Positions 1,877-52,177 of a stretch of DNA of 64,000 nucleotides are shown in pieces. Positions within the stretch are counted from its first letter, which is position 1, and every line of letters starts with the position of its first letter. Origin of the DNA: Oscillospiraceae bacterium (GTDB taxonomy: Bacteria > Bacillota > Clostridia > Oscillospirales > SIG627); NCBI GenBank assembly GCA_015065265.1, contig SVQQ01000007.1, positions 475 to 64,474 of the forward strand, given 5' to 3'. A program made the translations under genes and the position numbers. Under the pieces are notes generated by a model, which saw only the letters and a list, made by a program, of their open reading frames with translations, did not search any database and was not told the origin of the DNA.

Positions 1877-3064
1877 TTAAAGTATAAATTCCCTTTTTCC
1901 TGTTGTGAGTTCTTCCCATACGGGTGAAATCTCTCTCAAATACGCTACCACTTCGGCAACGGATTTTATAATATAGTCAATTTCTTCCTCGGTGTTTTCC
2001 TCGGTTATTGTAAGTCTGAGCGAACCGTGGGCAACGTCGTGGGGAAGTCCTATTGACAAAAGCACGTGGCTTGGGTCAAGTGAGCCTGAGGTACAAGCAG
2101 AGCCTGAAGAGGCTTCAATTCCTTTTTCGTCAAGGAGTAAAAGCAAACTTTCCCCCTCAATTCCTTCAAAACATACGTTTACGTTACCTGGGAGTCTCTT
2201 TTTTAGGTCTCCATTGATTTTAGAGTGAGGAATTTGTGAAAGTCCGTCTATAAGTTTCTGTCTTAAAGGAAGAAGAATTTCGGCGTTTTTATCTATATTT
2301 TCTACAGCCTCACTCATCGCGGCACACATTCCCCAAACGCCTGCAAGGTTTTCGGTTCCTGCTCTTTTATTTCTTTCCTGTGCACCACCTTCAATGAGAG
2401 AAGAAAGTATCACACCTCGTCTGCAATAGAGAAATCCCACTCCCTTAGGGCCATGGAATTTGTGTGCGGAAACCGAGAGCATATCAACTTGAAGTTCGTT
2501 TACGTCAATTTTCAGGTGTCCTGCCGCCTGAACAGCGTCTGTGTGGAAAACTACTCCTTTTTCTCGGCATATTTTTCCAATTTCGCCGATAGGCTGAATG
2601 GTTCCTATCTCGTTATTGGCGAACATTACTGTAACAAGGGCGGTGTCCTCTCTGATTGCCTTTGCCACGTCCTCGGCTTTTACAATTCCGTCTTCATTTA
2701 CGTCAACAAGCGTTATTTCAAAGCCCTGTCTTTCAAGTTTTTTCAGGGTATGGAGTACCGCGTGGTGCTCGAATTTTGTGGATACAATGTGCTTTTTATT
2801 CTTTTTAAGTCCGTTTTTGGCTGCCGAAAGGATTGCCTGATTGTCGGCTTCGCTTCCTCCTGAAGTGAAATAAATTTCTCTTGCCTCGGCACCGATAAGA
2901 CTTGCAATTTTATTTCTCGCAAGACTTAGTTCTTCTGCCGCTATCTGACCTGTTGTGTTAAGAGATGAGGGGTTTCCGTAAATTTTATCAAAATATGGGA
3001 GCATAGCGTCAATGGCGGTTTTGCTCATCTTTGTGGTTGCGGCGTTATCTGCATATATTCTCAT
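1877..3064 (-). CDS. nifS: Cysteine desulfurase NifS/IscS
   Basis: 395 aa class V aminotransferase with SAHKFHGPKG (PLP lysine) and SSGSACTS (active-site Cys). Confidence 0.9.
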   Translation of the reverse strand: MRIYADNAATTKMSKTAIDAMLPYFDKIYGNPSSLNTTGQIAAEELSLARNKIASLIGAEAREIYFTSGGSEADNQAILSAAKNGLKKNKKHIVSTKFEHHAVLHTLKKLERQGFEITLVDVNEDGIVKAEDVAKAIREDTALVTVMFANNEIGTIQPIGEIGKICREKGVVFHTDAVQAAGHLKIDVNELQVDMLSVSAHKFHGPKGVGFLYCRRGVILSSLIEGGAQERNKRAGTENLAGVWGMCAAMSEAVENIDKNAEILLPLRQKLIDGLSQIPHSKINGDLKKRLPGNVNVCFEGIEGESLLLLLDEKGIEASSGSACTSGSLDPSHVLLSIGLPHDVAHGSLRLTITEENTEEEIDYIIKSVAEVVAYLREISPVWEELTTGKREFIL

Positions 3065-3497
3065 TTATCTGTCCTTCTTTTGATATAGATTTTTCTTGAT
3101 TTACCACGTCTTCAAGGGTGGTTGAATCGATGTAGTCGTTTATGGTCTTGTTAAGTCCTTCCCAGAAAAAGAGGGTTGGGCAACAGTTACTGCTCTTGCA
3201 TCTGTTAGGGGAGTCCTCAACACAAGAAATAGGCGCCATTGAGCCTTCTGTCGCTCTTAAAATTTCGCCTACCGTGTATTCGCTTGGCGCTTTTGACAGT
3301 TTATAGCCTCCACTTTTTCCACGTGTGCTCTTTATCAGTTTTGAGCCAAGGAGCATTGTGATTATCTGTTCAAGATATTTTGCCGACACGTTTTGTCTTG
3401 TGGCTATTCCCTTTAAAGATACGTATTCTTCGCTATCCGATAGGGCGAGGTCAAGCATTATTTTAAGGGCGTATCTCCCTCTTGTCGAAATCTTCAT
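3045..3497 (-). CDS. Rrf2-family transcriptional regulator (IscR/CymR type)
   Basis: Begins MKISTRGRYALKIMLDLA with a winged-helix N-terminus and a C-terminal Cys cluster (CVEDSPNRCKSSNCC). It is the first gene of the nifS-nifU operon. Confidence 0.85.
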   Translation of the reverse strand: MKISTRGRYALKIMLDLALSDSEEYVSLKGIATRQNVSAKYLEQIITMLLGSKLIKSTRGKSGGYKLSKAPSEYTVGEILRATEGSMAPISCVEDSPNRCKSSNCCPTLFFWEGLNKTINDYIDSTTLEDVVNQEKSISKEGQINENICR

Positions 3498-3504
3498 CTG
3501 TTAT

Positions 3505-4151
3505 CCTTTCTTCGTCTCTTTATGTGCATTTTTGGTTAAAATACAGAAATGAAAAGATTATTAGAATTTTAATAAAACAAAATCATATACAAAAATTGAA
3601 TTTTTTATAGTTTTCTTTATATACAGTTTTCTGCGGAAAGAAATTCAAAGAATTTCTTGCAATTTTATCCAATTTCATTTCTTCGCGTGTTGCTCGGACT
3701 GCTGTACCCTTGTACAGCGACGCCGTCGCACTCCGCGATTTTTCCTCAAAAATGCTCTACTTTTTTGGGCTGTGGGCTGAGATTTAAAGATTAAAAATTT
3801 TATTTTCCCTCAAAGATACTCTCTCACTCTTTTCGGGTTGTGGGCTAATGTCTTTACAATGGATAGCAGAAGACGCGAGTACTAGCAAAAATCGTCTTTA
3901 ATCCTTGTATATAGGCTAATTTCAAATAAATTTATTGAAGATTTGCAAAGCAAATCAACCTTAATTCTGCATTTTGCATTTTGCATTCTGCATTTATAAT
4001 AATTGAAGATTTGCGAAGCAAATCAACCTTAATTTTACATTTGAGCGGGGGATTTTTGTGGTGTAGCGTTTAGCGGAACCTACAAAAATTCAAGCCATAC
4101 AGGGAGCGTAGCCAAGCATTTTGCGAGGCTAAAGCGAGTCGTACGGCATTT
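3505..4151 (+). repeat. Repeat locus A: m1 variant, m3, m4, two m5, m6, two half copies of the palindromic element, m7
   Basis: Direct matches to other loci. Region 3505-3732 resembles 49383-49610 and 4038-4151 resembles 49607-49721. Hairpins lie at 3638-3658 (AAGAAATTC/GAATTTCTT) and 3701-3718 (GCTGTAC/GTACAGC). m6 (3853-3919) resembles 34031-34098 inverted. Confidence 0.9.
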
Positions 4152-4172
4152 ACTGTTTCGTGCAACACATAT

Positions 4173-4201
4173 AATATACCATAGGTTTACTATGAATTCA
4201 A
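4173..4201 (-). promoter_or_regulatory. Candidate sigma-A promoter of the Rrf2-nifS-nifU operon
   Basis: The minus strand reads TTGAAT, a 17-nt spacer, then TGgTATATT (extended -10). Module m7 starts about 20 nt downstream. Confidence 0.4.
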
Positions 4202-4229
4202 TAGTGTTTTAATATATTTTGCAAAAAAA

Positions 4230-4258
4230 TTGACTTTTATTAAATGTTTTGATACAAT
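4230..4258 (+). promoter_or_regulatory. Candidate sigma-A promoter for the 4299 gene
   Basis: TTGACT (4230-4235), a 17-nt spacer, then TACAAT (4253-4258). The ORF-track start codon at 4230 is actually the -35 hexamer. Confidence 0.5.
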
Positions 4259-4298
4259 AATTTCAACGAAATTGACTTCTGTTTTGAAAGGACAAGGT

Positions 4299-4880
4299 AT
4301 GAATATAAATATTCCCGAAAATTACCGTGAAGAATTTGACCGTGCGGTAGATTTTGCCTTAGATAAGGAATACTTTACGCCAAAGGAACTTGCAGAATAT
4401 CTTGAAAAAAGTGTTCTGGTTGCCTCTATTATGATAGCCTATATGGAAAAGGCGTCCCTTATCACCGAGGGCAAAAACGACGAGGTGAGGCACACCCTTA
4501 TAACAAAGGGTAATTGGCAGTCAATCGGTGGGAAAATCGAGAACTTCACACCACCCCCAAAGGAAGAAAAGAAGACCTTTACCCCTGTTATTTTAGACAA
4601 GACGGCGGTGGATTTATCAGATATTTTTGAAGAAGCCTTTATTTTTGGAAAAATAGAGGTGTCTTATCTGAATCCAAACCTTTTCTTTTCAGGTGAAGAA
4701 GTGTGTCCCGATGAAATACAAAGTGTTTTAGTGGAAAAAGGCGGACTTTTCAAAAAAGGGCAACTGATTTTCACTCTTCTTTGCGGTGACGAAAAGAAAA
4801 TACCTTTAAAGAAGAAGGAATTTGACAAGGCCTTAAGGCTCAAAGTATTACTTGACGAAAAACTGGGACTCCAATATTGA
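4299..4880 (+). CDS. Hypothetical protein (weak resemblance of the N-terminal region to an FtsK-gamma-like winged helix)
   Basis: ATG at 4299 is preceded by GAAAGGACAAGGT. The ORF-track N-terminal extension overlaps the promoter. I recognise no confident domain. Confidence 0.5.
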   Translation: MNINIPENYREEFDRAVDFALDKEYFTPKELAEYLEKSVLVASIMIAYMEKASLITEGKNDEVRHTLITKGNWQSIGGKIENFTPPPKEEKKTFTPVILDKTAVDLSDIFEEAFIFGKIEVSYLNPNLFFSGEEVCPDEIQSVLVEKGGLFKKGQLIFTLLCGDEKKIPLKKKEFDKALRLKVLLDEKLGLQY

Positions 4881-46125: not shown

Positions 46126-47084
46126 TCAACGGAAAATTCGTCAGACAACTTTTTGAGGTTAACCTTCTTTTGCCCAAGGTATTGGGACAGGAGTTTTTCA
46201 GGAACTTCAAGAAAGACCTTTTCACCTTTTTTAAGGTCCATTTTGCGAAGTTTTTCCCGCATTTCGTCAAGGCGTAACCGAGATAAAATTAACTCCCCTA
46301 TTGCATCGTGATAGTCTCCTGCAATAACGTCGTCGGAGTGTAAACCTTCTCCGGATTGAAGGCCTATTCGGATAACGTCGACGTTGTTTTTTAAAAAAAG
46401 ACCAACAACTTTTGCCCCACGCTCCACAGTTTCGTCAAGGGTAGGCGGTTGATACTTTCCCGAAAGATAAAGGTCACCAAGGGCGGTGGAACTAAATACG
46501 ACAGTGGGGTAAACTCGGGCGCTTGTAGCCCCGTGGGAGATTATGTCAAGGGCAGTCTGCCTTTCATTTTCCTCGTTTCCCCCAAACATACCCGTCATCA
46601 TCTGCCCTGTCAGTTCAAAACCCTCTTTTACAATCAAATCCATTGCGTAAAGTGAGGTTTTGGCGTCGTGACCTCTCTTGTTAAGGGTCAAAACTTCGTC
46701 GTTTGTAGACTGAATTCCAAGTTCGATATTTGCAACTTTGTAAAACTTTAAAATACTGAGTATCTCTTCGTCAATATAATCGGGTCTGGTGGAAAGTCTT
46801 ATGGACGAAACTCGCCCCTCTTTGATGAATTTATTTGCGGTTTCAAGAAGTTTTATCATAAGAGAACGCTCAATTCCTGTAAAACTTCCGCCAAAAAATG
46901 CCACTTGAGGCACAAAGGACGAAATTGTCCCAAGTGCCTTTTCGATTTCTTCTTCAACTCCGTCCACGTCAAAGGAAGTTCTTCCCGAAATAGTCCTTTG
47001 ATTACAGAAAACACAATCGTTGGGGCATCCTATGTGGGGTACGAAAATAGGGATATTGGCGTGACGTTTCATGCCCTCTTCCAC
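46104..47084 (-). CDS. Radical SAM protein (ELP3/COG1243-like)
   Basis: Contains IPIFVPHIGCPNDCVFCNQ (CxxxCxxC). The last 7 codons (DVFLVKT) are encoded by repeat module m1. It overlaps cysS by 16 nt. Confidence 0.75.
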   Translation of the reverse strand: MEEGMKRHANIPIFVPHIGCPNDCVFCNQRTISGRTSFDVDGVEEEIEKALGTISSFVPQVAFFGGSFTGIERSLMIKLLETANKFIKEGRVSSIRLSTRPDYIDEEILSILKFYKVANIELGIQSTNDEVLTLNKRGHDAKTSLYAMDLIVKEGFELTGQMMTGMFGGNEENERQTALDIISHGATSARVYPTVVFSSTALGDLYLSGKYQPPTLDETVERGAKVVGLFLKNNVDVIRIGLQSGEGLHSDDVIAGDYHDAIGELILSRLRLDEMREKLRKMDLKKGEKVFLEVPEKLLSQYLGQKKVNLKKLSDEFSVDVFLVKT

Positions 47085-48460
47085 TTAGTTCCCTGAGGGG
47101 TATCTTCAAGGACAATTCCCTTGTTTTTGAGTTCTTCTCTGATTTCGTCGGCTCTCGCATAGTTCTTTTCTTTCTTTGCCGAAATTCTCTCGGAAATCAG
47201 GTCTTCAATCCACTTTGTGTCCTCTTCTTCTTCGGGAACGAGGAAGCCCATAAGTCCTACAAGTTCCTTATATATAGCGTAAATTTCTTCAAGGTCGCCT
47301 TTTGTAAGAGAAGTGTCGGAAATAAGGGTGTTAATCTTTCTTATCATTTCAAAAATGGCAGAAATTCCGTCTGCGGTATTGAAATCGTCGTCCATTGCGA
47401 CAATGAATTTTTCGCGGTATTCACCCAGTGCATTTATGTCTTCGGTCTTTGTGACACCGCCTTCTTTTGCATTTTTAAGAGCGTACTTTATTCCGTTTTC
47501 ACAGTTGTACATACGTTCAAGAGAAGCCTTTGACTGCTCTAAAATGTCTGCAGAGAAGTTAATGGGACTTCTGTACTGAGCAGAGACAAGGAAAAAGCGA
47601 ATTGCAGGATAGGAGTACTTTGCCGCAGCGTCACGGACGGTGAAGAAATTGCCAAGAGACTTTGACATTTTCTTGTTATCCACGTTTATATATCCGTTGT
47701 GGATAAAGGCACGGCAGAAAGGAACGCCGAAAGCGGCTTCAGACTGTGCAACTTCGTTTTCGTGATGTGGGAAAGTCAGGTCCTGACCGCCTCCGTGAAG
47801 GTCGATTGTCTTTCCGAGATATTTATCAACCATTGCCGAGCACTCGATATGCCAACCCGGTCTTCCTTTTCCCCAAGGGGAGTCCCAATAGGGTTCACCC
47901 TCTTTGTACGCTTTCCACAGAGCGAAGTCAAGGGGGTCGTGTTTTACGTCGTTTACGTCAATTCTCGCTCCGCTTTCAAGGTCGTCTACGTCAAAACCGC
48001 CAAGTCTGCCATAGTCCTTGAATTTACGTGCCGAGAAGTAAACGTCACCGTTTTCGGCAGGGTAAGCGTAGCCTTTTTCGATAAGGATTTTAATGATATT
48101 TATAATTTCTTCCATATTTTCCGTGGCTCTTGGATGGAAGGTGGCGGGAGTTATGCCAAGGCCTTTTGCATCGGTGAAATATTCTTCAATATACTTGTCT
48201 GCAACTGCCTTGACTGTGGTGTTTTCTTCCTTTGCTCTCTTTATCATTTTGTCGTCGATATCGGTGAAATTCTGTACGAAAGTTACCTTGTTTCCTCTAT
48301 ATTCGAGGTATCGGCGAAGCAGGTCGAAAATAACGAAACAACGTGCGTTTCCTACGTGGAAATAGTTATAAACCGTGGGGCCACAGGCATACATTCTCAC
48401 GGTGTTATCCTTAAAAACAAGTTCCTCTTTTTTCTTTGTAAGTGAATTATAAAACTTCAT
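47069..48460 (-). CDS. cysS: Cysteinyl-tRNA synthetase
   Basis: Contains HVGNARC (HIGH) and KMSKS. Confidence 0.95.
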
Positions 48461-48461
48461 A

Positions 48462-49094
48462 TTATTCTCCTTTTTCCAGTGTCTCTATTTTCTTTTGTAG
48501 TTTTTCAATTTCCGCCCTCATTCTGCAAAGTTCTTGGGAAACGGGGTCGGGAATGTGTATCTGGTCAAGGTCGGATTGTCTCTGACCGTCCCTTTTTACA
48601 ACTCGTGCAGGAGCGCCAACAGCAGTTGAATCGGGGGGAATTTCGGTAAGAACCACTGACCCTGCGGCAATTTTTGCCCTGTCCCCTACTTTGAAAGGGC
48701 CAAGAACCTTTGCCCCTGCGCCAACGAGGACACCGTTACCTAAGGTGGGATGTCTCTTTCCAATATCTTTTCCCGTACCGCCAAGGGTTACTCCTTGGTA
48801 AAGTGTACATTCATCACCAATTTCGGCAGTTTCGCCAATAACTACCCCTGAACCGTGGTCAATGAACAGCCCTCTGCCAATAGTCGCACCGGGGTGTATT
48901 TCAATGCCTGTAAAAAATCTGCCCGTTTGGGAGATAAGTCTGGCAATAAAGAAAAGTCGGTGTCTATAAAAGAAATTCGCAATTCTGTAATAAATCAAGG
49001 CGTGAAAGCCTGAATACAGGAAGAAAATTTCAAAAATATTTCTCGCGGCGGGGTCGCGGGATTTAATCGACTTCAAATCCTCAAATATCTTCAT
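48462..49094 (-). CDS. cysE: Serine O-acetyltransferase
   Basis: Has hexapeptide repeats and GIEIHPGATIG. Confidence 0.9.
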   Translation of the reverse strand: MKIFEDLKSIKSRDPAARNIFEIFFLYSGFHALIYYRIANFFYRHRLFFIARLISQTGRFFTGIEIHPGATIGRGLFIDHGSGVVIGETAEIGDECTLYQGVTLGGTGKDIGKRHPTLGNGVLVGAGAKVLGPFKVGDRAKIAAGSVVLTEIPPDSTAVGAPARVVKRDGQRQSDLDQIHIPDPVSQELCRMRAEIEKLQKKIETLEKGE

Positions 49095-49101
49095 TTAGGT
49101 T

Positions 49102-49721
49102 CCTTTCTTCGTCTCTTTGGTGAAAAACGAAATGAAATTGGGTATAGAATATAGTAAGGCGTAATCTGTTTTTAAAGTTTATGCTTTGTTTGTCATCTGT
49201 TCCAATATATAATTTTTTCAAAGTAAGAAGTTCTGCGAACTTCTTTTCATCTATTTCAATTTCATTTCTTCGTTTCTTGCTCGGACTACTGTACATAAGT
49301 ACAGTTACGCCTTCGCAATAAACGATTTTCCCTCAAAGATACTCTCTCTTTTCATTTGGGTTATGTGTTGAAGGCTCAAAGTCCTTTCTTCGTCTCTTTG
49401 GTGTGCATTTTTGGTTAAAATACAGAAATGAAAAGGTTATTAAGTTTTTAATAAAACAAAAACCATTCACAAATCTTAACTTTTTCAAAGCATTCTATAT
49501 ATACAGTTTTCTTCGGAAAGAAATTCTACGAATTTCTCTTGAATTTTTTATTTCATTTCTTCGCGTGTTGCTCGGACTGGCGTACCATTGTACGCCGACG
49601 CCTTCGCACTTGAGCGGGGGATTTTTGTGGTGTAGCGTTTAGCGAAACCTACAAAAATTCAAGCCATACAGGGAGCGTAGCCGAGCAGTGTGTGAGGCTA
49701 AAGCGAGTCGGACTGCATTTT
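49102..49721 (+). repeat. Repeat locus E, lying between cysE and its T-box: m1, degenerate m2, m3, m4, m5, then an m1 variant, m3 variant, m4, m7
   Basis: m1 lies at 49110-49138 and 49391-49435, m3 at 49225-49245 and 49519-49537, m4 hairpins at 49288-49305 and 49579-49596, m5 at 49321-49382 and m7 at 49607-49721. Confidence 0.9.
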
Positions 49722-49771
49722 ACATATCTTCCTTATGTATTATATAAGGGGAAGCGGGTTTTGGGTAAAAT

Positions 49772-49990
49772 AAAAAACCGCCCTCTGTCAAGAGGCGCGG
49801 TTGCGCGGTTCCACTCTTATTTATAACTTTTTCTTTTTTGCTTGTCCCGATTTCTCGGCGGCCGCACTTTCACAAAATAAGCAATAGACGTTCACACCAA
49901 ACACGTCCTCTCTGAATTGCTTTTTTCTTGTTACTCTTGCCAAACAGACTATCCTCTGCCGACTTGCAATATATTAAATTCAAAGTAGTT
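49772..49990 (-). promoter_or_regulatory. T-box riboswitch leader, probably Cys-specific
   Basis: The minus strand reads AAGAG-TGGAACC-GCGC-AACC-GCGC-CTCTT. This is the canonical antiterminator with a 7-nt UGGNACC bulge, where N=A fits the tRNA-Cys discriminator U73. It overlaps the terminator CCGCG(C)CTCT-TGAC-AGAGGGCGG-TTTTTT. Upstream elements are AGAGAG and GGTG. A candidate UGC specifier lies at 49864-49866. Confidence 0.85.
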
Positions 49991-50349
49991 CAGTATGAGT
50001 ATAGCATATAATAATACAAAAAGCAAGTCACAGGAGCACCCTATACTTTATTTTTATTTACGATTATCCGTAATTTGTGTTTTTGGATTTTGGGGCAAAA
50101 AAACACAAGATATAGTGTCTTTCACTTAAAAATCGCTCCCAAAAACTCAACTTCACAGGTCGGCTTTGGCAAATTTGCGGAAGGATGAGCAAAAATTTTT
50201 AGCAAAGTGACAAAAATACAGGCTTGTTTTTGGGCAAAATTAAGAGGATTTGATAATATTTTTACGAAAACACGTAAAATTTAACAAAAAAGCGTCAAGA
50301 TTTTGGTGGAAAATTGACGGAAAAAGACGGGTCAGGAAAATATTGTGAT

Positions 50350-50378
50350 TTGATTTATTTTTGCCTTTATGATAAAAT
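50350..50378 (+). promoter_or_regulatory. Candidate sigma-A promoter of the M23 peptidase gene
   Basis: TTGATT, a 17-nt spacer, then TGaTAAAAT (extended -10). Confidence 0.5.
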
Positions 50379-50419
50379 AACTACACTAAGAAAGATATGC
50401 CATAAAGGAGGTGTTACCC

Positions 50420-52177
50420 ATGGGACAGGATAATCTCGAGAACTCTCAGACAGCGGAGTCTTCAACTATCAACGAAAGTGGAAGAAGACCTGCGAGAAGA
50501 CAGACTTTTACCGGTCTTTACCGTACGTTCAGGCGTTCGGGATTGGGTAAAATCGACTCGGCATTCAACGCTCTTTACATATGCCAGACCAACAGGTGTT
50601 GTCGTGAGAACTTGAATTCCAACAACGTGGGCGACGGATTCTTTAGTCATCCCACAGGTTATTACAGTTCCAAGGCAGAGAGCATCAGACGTGCGGCGAA
50701 AACAAGAACTCTTAGTTTTCTTGAAAGGGTTGCGAAAATTCTTTCCCCTCTTACAAGAAGTGTTGAGAAAAAGGGCAATTCACCTGTAATTTTCGACAAC
50801 AGTGAGGCTTGTCTTAAAAAGGCGCTCTGCTTGTTAAAACGCTCTTCAAAGGCGGTTTGTGTAACAGCTGCTGCACTGCTTTTCGCAATTTCCATTTACA
50901 TAAACAGTCAAAAGAACACAGTTGTGGAAGTTAAGATAGACGGTGTGGTAATTGGCGAAGTTAAGAGTCTTGAAACGGTAGACACCGCGCTCGACCGAGT
51001 TAATGCCAAGATTTCTTCTCTTATGGGCGAGGTTTTCACTTTCCCTCATGAAGTTTCCTTTACTATAAAGAACAAGAACAGTTCCGATTGTATGGATATA
51101 GACAGCGTTTGCGACGTTTTATATACTTACACTGAAGAATACATAACCACAGCCTATGGGTTGTACGTTGATTCTCATCTTATTGCGGTTTTGAATTCCA
51201 GAGACGATATTGTATCCGTCCTTGACACCGTTAAATCCGAGCACATGGCACTGACGGGTGAAGATGAGGATATTGCAAATAATATCGAGATAAAGTATCA
51301 GGAATACGCTAAAAACAGTATTATAGACAAGGAAACACTCGTTTCTATGTTCTCGGTTGTCCCTGAAAAGAAAGAGGATAACGCAAGAGTTGACGCGCTT
51401 CTTTCTTCTAACGAAAACGTTTCCTTTACTCTTGGCGGCGAGATTGTACCCCTCGGACAACGCCTTGCAGAAGCGGTATCCGGCGAAGAAGGACAAAACA
51501 CAATCGTCCTTGACTTTGTAACTTATGAAGAAGTAACTCTTCGAGAGACTGTTCCTTTTGAGACCGAGTATATTACCGACGACACTTATTATACAAGTCA
51601 GAAGGTTGTACAACGTTCAGGTAAAAACGGAAAGGCTAGTAACACTTACCGAGTAAAATACGTAAACGGAGTTGAAGACTCCCGAGTACTTATTAATTCT
51701 ACAACTATTCAGGAAGGACGTTCTTGCATTATAAAGGTTGGAACGAGAATTCTTCCCGAAACTATGACCCTTGATGAAAATGACGGAAAATATATGATAA
51801 ATCCTGTTCCCTTGGCGTATGTCAGCGACTACTTCGGTTGGCGTACACTTAACGGAAGACGTACTTATCACCAAGGTCTTGACCTTGCCGCCATGAAGGG
51901 AACTCCCATTTATGCTGCGGCATCGGGAGAAGTAATTTTGGCAAGTTACAGTTCTTCCTACGGATACGTAGTGAAAATTGAACATGCCGACGGACTTGTT
52001 ACCGTCTATGCCCATTCTTCAAAACTCCTTGTAAAAGTTGGAGACGTAGTTGAACAGGGCGAAGAAATCGCCAGAGTTGGCTCAACAGGTTATTCCTTTG
52101 GATACCACTGTCATTTTGAAGTTATAAAAGACGGAGAAAAGGTTGACCCTGAAGATTATATTTACACTCTTGAGTGA
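50420..52177 (+). CDS. M23 family metallopeptidase with G5 domain and membrane anchor
   Basis: ATG at 50420 lies 8 nt after AAGGAGG; the ORF-track GTG at 50411 is inside the RBS. The G5-like segment is QKVVQRSGKNGKASNTYRVKYVNG. The M23 motifs are HQGLDLAA...HFEV. Confidence 0.8.
   Translation: MGQDNLENSQTAESSTINESGRRPARRQTFTGLYRTFRRSGLGKIDSAFNALYICQTNRCCRENLNSNNVGDGFFSHPTGYYSSKAESIRRAAKTRTLSFLERVAKILSPLTRSVEKKGNSPVIFDNSEACLKKALCLLKRSSKAVCVTAAALLFAISIYINSQKNTVVEVKIDGVVIGEVKSLETVDTALDRVNAKISSLMGEVFTFPHEVSFTIKNKNSSDCMDIDSVCDVLYTYTEEYITTAYGLYVDSHLIAVLNSRDDIVSVLDTVKSEHMALTGEDEDIANNIEIKYQEYAKNSIIDKETLVSMFSVVPEKKEDNARVDALLSSNENVSFTLGGEIVPLGQRLAEAVSGEEGQNTIVLDFVTYEEVTLRETVPFETEYITDDTYYTSQKVVQRSGKNGKASNTYRVKYVNGVEDSRVLINSTTIQEGRSCIIKVGTRILPETMTLDENDGKYMINPVPLAYVSDYFGWRTLNGRRTYHQGLDLAAMKGTPIYAAASGEVILASYSSSYGYVVKIEHADGLVTVYAHSSKLLVKVGDVVEQGEEIARVGSTGYSFGYHCHFEVIKDGEKVDPEDYIYTLE

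Follow-up and report, generated by a model that had tools for sequence, protein, structure and literature searches.

We found that the leader sequence shared by the Rrf2-nifS-nifU and cysE-cysS operons consists, with a probability of about 0.85, of lineage-specific mosaic intergenic repeat modules that invaded the 5' UTRs of both operons in this species only. Each operon retains its own ancestral control, a genus-wide promoter with an operator-like spacer in the case of Rrf2 and a Cys T-box in the case of cysE-cysS, and approximately 650-680 nt of repeat modules now lie between this control element and the start codon of both operons. A preliminary description of this DNA had left two readings side by side, namely a shared cis-regulatory leader of cysteine operons and repeat hitch-hiking. 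The results spoke for the latter, with modules present at many unrelated loci, both leaders free of them in 15 of 15 congeners, and the nearest relatives of the cysE blocks located beside polA. The former did not hold up, since m7 adjoins genes of unrelated function, the modules are missing from the leaders of the 15 congeners, and the closest copies flank polA.

The window, the whole stretch of 64,000 nt that was analysed, corresponds to positions 475-64474 of contig C26 in a 1.65-Mb draft genome of 50 contigs with 39.8% G+C. Pfam supported the gene identities proposed earlier for Rrf2, nifS, nifU, cysE and cysS. The Rrf2 gene heads an operon of five genes (Rrf2-nifS-nifU-Fer4-HhH-GPD, hereafter the isc operon), and the genes downstream of it matched a class-V aminotransferase of the nifS/iscS type, NifU_N and a 4Fe-4S protein in Pfam. 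Wherever a congener has the isc operon, polA and cysES on one contig, 12-50 kb separate these loci. The features of the two leaders are listed in Table 1.

Table 1. Positions in the window of the two operon heads, their ancestral control elements and the repeat modules lying between them.
Feature	Position	Strand	Details
Rrf2-family regulator gene	3045..3497	(-)	Pfam PF02082, E 2.4e-37
AAGAGACGAAGAAAGGA before Rrf2	3504..3520	(-)	Outer end of m1 with Shine-Dalgarno-like GAAAGGA
Block 1, Rrf2 leader	3504..3732	(-)	Single repeat unit: m4, m3 hairpin, AT-only weak hairpin and m1 with 13-nt insert
Middle modules, Rrf2 leader	3733..4037	(-)	Families D1 and D16
m7, Rrf2 leader	4038..4151	(+)	Covariance model R1, 123.5 bits; + strand antisense to the operon
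Rrf2-operon promoter	4173..4201	(-)	TTGAAT-17-TATATT, upstream TG; conserved spacer is a candidate Rrf2 operator
cysS	47069-48460	(-)	Follows cysE; Pfam tRNA-synt_1e
cysE (serine acetyltransferase)	48462..49094	(-)	Pfam Hexapep, SATase_N
Proximal repeat unit, cysE leader	49095..49382	(-)	Decayed hairpin; m1 end yields AAGAGACGAAGAAAGGA at 49101-49117
Distal block 1, cysE leader	49383..49610	(-)	Ends in GAAGAAAGGA like other copies, without a gene after it
m7, cysE leader	49607..49721	(+)	98.2% identical to C26:336-448, 93.0% to the Rrf2-leader copy
Cys T-box leader with terminator	49772..49954	(-)	Ancestral regulator of cysE-cysS; RF00230, 59.9 bits (below the Rfam gathering score of 93), E 3.7e-12; match 49954-49788(-), model positions 1-219; UGC in specifier position

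The similarity of the two leaders was reproduced at the level of their modules. Block 1 upstream of Rrf2 (3504-3732) showed 84.9% identity to 49382-49610 over 232 nt, the second shared block, m7, showed 93% identity between 4038-4151 and 49607-49720 over 114 nt, and module order and orientation were identical before the two operons. Block 1 does not abut cysE, however, as an extra 288-nt repeat unit (49095-49382) lies in between. Compared with the copies flanking polA, block 1 of the Rrf2 leader was 85-87% identical by BLAST and 88.5-89.4% identical by pairwise alignment, and dozens of further copies at 68-80% (BLAST) were detected elsewhere in the genome. The middle modules of the Rrf2 leader matched C26:108-340, immediately beyond the left edge of the window, at 86% identity. 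Positions 3927-4062 of this leader contain a 68-nt module in tandem duplicate, with a TGCAGAAT-type heptad run and a GATTTGC..GCAAATC hairpin; the composite on the polA side has one copy fewer of this module. Rfam searches of both strands at E <= 1 returned no match in the Rrf2 leader (3400-4400), and the T-box was the only match in the cysE leader (49000-50500).

To determine how widely the second block is distributed, the whole genome was searched for m7. The preliminary description had reported m7 at these two loci only, which is correct inside the window; genome-wide it fails, as BLAST detected nine copies at seven loci, mutually 91-100% identical, and the same nine copies were recovered by a covariance model built from 42 copies. 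Apart from the two leaders, m7 was located just outside the window at the 3' end of the HhH-GPD repair gene at the far end of the isc operon (C26:336-448), as a tandem triple between a convergent gene pair of which one member is a Na/Pi cotransporter (Pfam), upstream of hisS and, in the opposite orientation, of a CNNM/CorC transporter, and between an aspartate aminotransferase gene and a convergent gene. These results do not bear out a specificity of m7 for cysteine operons: the element is found in either orientation beside many genes of unrelated function, frequently at their 3' ends. The genes adjoining m7 loci (hisS, CorC/CNNM, Na/Pi cotransporter, aspartate aminotransferase, HhH-GPD and polA) are not functionally related, both orientations are present within this genome, and m7 is joined to differing neighbour modules in different copies. 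It is always embedded in arrays, with junctions in short recurring strings such as CTGCATT, and a clean pair of empty and filled sites for m7 alone was not recovered. One observation counts against hitch-hiking: three of the seven m7 loci adjoin the isc or cysES operons and one congener carries m7 inside cysES, which exceeds uniform scatter, but the loci are clustered and the copies non-independent. An apparent enrichment of m7 in non-convergent contexts (5 of 7 loci, compared with about one third of all array loci) was judged too weak and non-independent to be used. The reading frame of the HhH-GPD gene, the last of the isc operon, continues into m7 (C26 427-448), with its last six or seven codons and the TAG stop coming from the repeat; in relatives, the end of this gene and the polA start are no more than a few bases apart.

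The covariance model was further applied to related genomes. Among 15 congeners, 11 were positive, with 2-31 copies per genome and approximately 120 matches in total. The model found no m7 in 35 genomes belonging to seven further genera of the family. Rrf2 is most diverged (62-64% identity) in the four congeners that lack m7. Gene contexts in relatives were assessed on about 40 copies excised with their flanks, and were convergent in about 15 cases, tandem antisense in about 13, tandem sense in about 8 and divergent in 2. The expectation that m7 or block 1 would be kept in orthologous leaders was contradicted, with neither element present in the Rrf2 or cysE leader of any of the 15 congeners. 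The single m7 within 1.5 kb of the Rrf2 or cysE genes in these genomes belongs to congener G009 (G009:C50 1296-1405), where it lies in opposite orientation in the 245-nt spacer between cysE and cysS, which are adjacent in this genome.

We then compared the native Rrf2 leader across the genus. The earlier proposal of a promoter about 20 nt from m7 was substantiated: 21 nt separate m7 from the end of the promoter-like site at 4201-4173(-), which is conserved in 16 of 16 genus genomes. This site belongs to the block TTGAATTC(A/C)TA(G/C)TAAACCTATGGTATAAT upstream of Rrf2 (window 4160-4210), whose spacer is likewise conserved and which was retained even where Rrf2 is only 62% identical. The invariant spacer between the -35 and -10 elements would be a good candidate operator for an autoregulating Rrf2 protein. 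Between the promoter block and the Rrf2 ATG lie 38-51 nt in 11 of the relatives and 101-194 nt in the other four; this genome has 690 nt. As this gap is short in the relatives and long here, the array of m7, middle modules and block 1 is an insertion between the ancestral promoter/operator and the ATG. The relatives with the 101-194-nt gap are L023, L025, L028 and L033, and TGCAGAAT-type repeat modules abut the Rrf2 ribosome-binding site in L023, L025 and L028. The Rrf2 leader has been invaded by repeats independently in several species. No second copy of the conserved promoter spacer was found near cysE. The only other intergenic match to the operator of the Rrf2 promoter, on contig C37 (2705-2755), proved to be an unrelated inverted repeat CTACCGTAGGTTTACTA..TAAACTAACGGTAGG, one arm of which probably resembles the spacer by chance; this inverted repeat sits between a transporter-like ORF and a gene that reads like an XRE-type HTH regulator.

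The cysE leader gave a corresponding result. As described earlier, m7 follows the T-box terminator, which lies at 49795-49772 with a T run, about 50 nt before m7. In this genome, the stretch from the terminator to cysE is made up of 677 nt of repeats, and in the relatives shown the T run of the terminator is followed directly by the cysE ribosome-binding site. A T-box also precedes cysE in G009. No T-box was found before hisS, before polA or in the CorC locus.

These comparisons bear directly on the possibility that m7, block 1 or both serve as an RNA element or a protein-binding site, such as an Rrf2/CymR operator, through which the operons for Fe-S assembly and cysteine supply are co-regulated. 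The equal order and orientation of the modules before both operons, the Rrf2 regulator encoded by one of them, the structured nature of m7 and its presence within cysES in one congener are all consistent with such an element. However, the majority of m7 loci have no connection with cysteine, and many copies are reversed or sit at the 3' ends of genes; both leaders lack the modules in all 15 congeners, which keep the ancestral promoter/operator, and the relatives shown keep the T-box terminator just before cysE. In addition, the nearest block copies flank polA, the Rrf2 promoter spacer lacks a second copy near cysE, the mRNA of both leaders carries the weaker-folding strand of m7, and no Rfam match was obtained. 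Taken together, we consider co-regulation through this leader to be very improbable, and m7 is not a cysteine sensor.

The copies around polA bear on the origin of the cysE-leader blocks. On the 2.9-kb contig C17, an 855-codon ORF reads, judging by its length and N-terminal sequence, as DNA polymerase I. Inverted copies of block 1 flank it (C17 1-113 and 2682-2925), one of them just past the stop codon, and an inversion of polA between these copies could in principle occur. In at least four related genomes, polA shares contig and strand with the isc operon and is located approximately 3.5 kb downstream of the Rrf2 start, and in 7 genomes the stop of a gene on the same strand falls within 3-25 nt of the start of polA. 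The right end of C17, the left end of C26 and the right end of C12 share a perfect 127-mer at which the assembly breaks; therefore, polA was positioned beside the left end of C26 by synteny in relatives and not by the assembly. The array found there, with m7 at 336-448, middle modules and block 1, is most likely the polA leader. The composites on the Rrf2 side and the polA side constitute direct repeats around the five-gene operon. The cysE leader was closer to polA than to Rrf2 in both shared blocks: by pairwise alignment, its m7 was 98.2% identical to the polA-side copy versus 93.0% to the Rrf2-leader copy, and its block 1 was 95.5-97.2% identical to the polA-side copies versus 87.7% to the Rrf2-leader copy. 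Modules would have been copied between neighbouring loci, and the cysE blocks are near-copies of the polA-flanking blocks.

To place the two leaders within the repeat population, all repeat-bearing loci were examined. The module family occupies 38 loci with a total of 16.6 kb and was divided into families D1-D16. Of these loci, 21 lie between convergent genes, and the only ones between divergent genes are the two leaders and one 90-bp locus. Predicted folding of the 70 nt beside the m1 end differed according to the neighbouring gene end: units abutting stop codons had a median of about -16 kcal/mol (n = 25), whereas the five units abutting start codons (Rrf2, polA, cysE, hisS and the gene downstream of hisS) ranged from -3.1 to -12.5 kcal/mol, with -6.3 kcal/mol for block 1 of the Rrf2 leader and -3.1 kcal/mol for the proximal cysE unit (Mann-Whitney P = 0.0007, a value that overstates the contrast given the few, related copies). 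The same weak-hairpin variant is also present 3' of the polA stop codon, which counts against our main reading. No sense-strand terminator was predicted inside either leader array, and transcription presumably reads through both. We propose that the position between promoter or T-box and ATG would tolerate only modules without a working terminator hairpin, and that such a filter would select the same subfamily of weak-hairpin units together with m7. The two leaders would thus be alike because of local copying combined with this terminator-free filter. Regarding mobilisation, no enzyme linked to the modules was found in this genome, a further point against the main reading. A RAYT/IS200 route was rejected, as the sole Y1_Tnp gene (C3:5090-5542) has IS200-type flanks without any module; this IS200-like Y1 transposase gene has its own GC-rich end hairpin, and a partial second copy lies 3.8 kb away (C3:1286-1562).

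The ribosome-binding context shared by the two operons was verified, with AAGAGACGAAGAAAGGA located exactly 6 nt before both the Rrf2 ATG (3497) and the cysE ATG (49094; string at 49101-49117). The same string lies 6 nt before the polA ATG, with the same m1 variant carrying the 13-nt insert, and the ribosome-binding string lies 9 nt before the hisS ATG. The core GACGAAGAAAGGA occurs five times in the genome: four occurrences precede Rrf2, cysE, polA and hisS, and the fifth is in the interior of the cysE array, where no gene follows, and therefore the string travels with the repeat. The spacer and ATG lie outside the repeat and differ between loci, and relatives have other ribosome-binding contexts at these genes. 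Given its position 6-9 nt before the four start codons, the repeat-borne GAAAGGA is most likely now the Shine-Dalgarno sequence of Rrf2, cysE, polA and hisS. In some relatives, the native context of polA (ACGAAAGGATTA) is similar to the repeat end, which may derive from it. The gene downstream of hisS has an m1 end AAAGAGACGAAAAAAGGAG (C45 492-520) 8 nt ahead of its ATG, which makes it the fifth gene whose ribosome-binding site abuts a repeat end.

This arrangement raises the question of whether the weak-hairpin unit with its Shine-Dalgarno end is a portable 5'-UTR cassette like Neisseria REP2, co-opted as a translation-initiation or mRNA-stability module that would give Rrf2, cysE, polA and hisS a shared post-transcriptional behaviour unrelated to cysteine. 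The identical GACGAAGAAAGGA 6-9 nt before four start codons with a fifth copy inside an array, the differing Shine-Dalgarno contexts of these genes in relatives, and the precedent of repeats bearing a ribosome-binding site (REP2; PMC3184786) argue for such a cassette. Nevertheless, no promoter-like site was found within block 1, the ATG and spacer are outside the repeat, and the likeness of the relatives' polA context ACGAAAGGATTA to the repeat end indicates that the string may be a captured flank and not a designed part. A co-opted cassette therefore appears distinctly unlikely. A weak promoter site matching 9 of 12 positions in the proximal cysE unit (49176-49148(-)) was within chance expectation.

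To evaluate the structure of m7, 42 copies were analysed with RNAalifold and a covariation analysis was run. The consensus, about 109 nt in length, forms two independent stem-loops, that is, two hairpin domains with 26 pairs in total, and compensatory changes were observed in 17 of the 26. Paired cells amounted to 97.3%, compared with 85.3% in column shuffles and 23-40% with the partners slid, and 138 cells were changed on both sides versus 40 expected. Both stems drawn in the preliminary description, the 12-bp stem and the TAGCC/GGCTA stem, were supported by covariation. One pair was G.U in 30 of the 42 copies, unpaired stretches were conserved along with this G.U pair, and tandem G.A mismatches were present. 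The + strand folded better than the operon-mRNA strand in both leaders (Rrf2 leader: -36.6 versus -31.7 kcal/mol; cysE leader: -33.6 versus -24.8 kcal/mol). A T run after the m7 stems was absent on either strand, and m7 had no Rfam match at E <= 1.

These features are compatible with m7 being a stand-alone structured RNA gene, or an antisense element made from the better-folding + strand, that acts on neighbouring transcripts. The strong covariation (97.3% of cells paired, compensatory changes in 17 of 26 pairs), the conserved unpaired stretches and G.U pair, and the better fold of the + strand agree with an RNA gene. Against it, promoter, orientation and gene context are all inconsistent between copies; m7 occurs in tandem arrays and at contig breaks as DNA repeats do; it is confined to part of one genus at 2-31 copies per genome; and repeats that depend on a hairpin for mobilisation, such as bcr1, typically show conservation of structure as well (PMC3184786). 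We regard an RNA gene of this kind as improbable, indeed a little more so than the cassette discussed above. A further reading, to which we give a small chance, is that m7 is an undescribed structured RNA of about 109 nt with two domains and conserved unpaired motifs which acts at the RNA level and which, together with the Shine-Dalgarno-bearing repeat end, would have rewired the 5' UTRs of several housekeeping operons in this lineage; it may, for example, serve as a module for mRNA processing or stability or as an antisense RNA from the better-folding strand. Within the repeat-invasion reading, the shape of m7 is most likely kept by compensatory change since the structure is needed for spread or persistence.

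The case is a neat but ordinary example of repeats hitch-hiking in 5' UTRs. The results remove a tempting false lead, in that similar leaders before functionally related operons are no evidence of co-regulation when the genome is rich in mosaic repeats. They also provide a clean natural example of 5'-UTR colonisation, with about 650-680 nt placed between a conserved promoter/operator or T-box and the ATG, terminator-free modules only, and a ribosome-binding site apparently derived from the repeat end. If confirmed by experiment, this lineage could serve for studying how riboswitch- or repressor-controlled operons tolerate long structured insertions, and could reveal the way in which translation signals are captured and spread by repeats. 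For the Rrf2 regulator of this genus, the conserved promoter block offers a ready candidate operator.

Several known systems can be compared with these leaders. Firmicutes Cys T-box leaders of cysE-cysS (RF00230) share with this locus the UGC specifier and an intrinsic terminator upstream of cysE-cysS, and differ in that 677 nt of repeats lie here between terminator and cysE, whereas the terminator abuts the ribosome-binding site in the relatives shown. Neisseria REP2 (PMC3184786) resembles the repeats described here in having a repeat end with a ribosome-binding-site-like sequence directly before several start codons, and among known systems it comes nearest to the regulatory reading of the preliminary description. 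In contrast to REP2, the genes served here (Rrf2, cysE, polA and hisS) are functionally unrelated, the unit has no promoter, and the ATG lies outside the repeat; the ribosome-binding-site-like GAAAGGA is the only feature of REP2-type expression repeats present, and REP2-style co-regulation of the four genes is unlikely.

With regard to dispersed repeats, the BIMEs and REP clusters of enterobacteria and the BOX elements of Streptococcus pneumoniae (Croucher et al. 2011, PMC3049150; Delihas 2011, PMC3184786) consist, as here, of short hairpin modules combined in variable intergenic order. They are also alike in their lineage-restricted, variable copy number and positions, in the many copies at gene 3' ends and in tandem arrays that break assemblies. 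The differences are that the module sequences are unrelated, that no RAYT-type transposase is linked to the modules here, and that the arrays here also lie between promoter or T-box and start codon. Membership among REP elements in the strict, RAYT-mobilised sense is not indicated, as no repeat-flanked transposase was present. The bcr1 element of the Bacillus cereus group is an approximately 155-bp, transcribed repeat with a two-stem-loop RNA kept by compensatory changes (PMC3184786). Like m7, it is dispersed, has two stem-loops maintained by compensatory substitutions, and occupies positions not conserved between related species; unlike bcr1, m7 has no visible flanking direct repeats, being embedded in mosaic arrays, and is unrelated in sequence. 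Dispersed modular intergenic copies, compensated hairpin stems, and lineage restriction with non-orthologous positions were all found here, and the repeat family is of the BIME, BOX or bcr1 kind (PMC3049150, PMC3184786).
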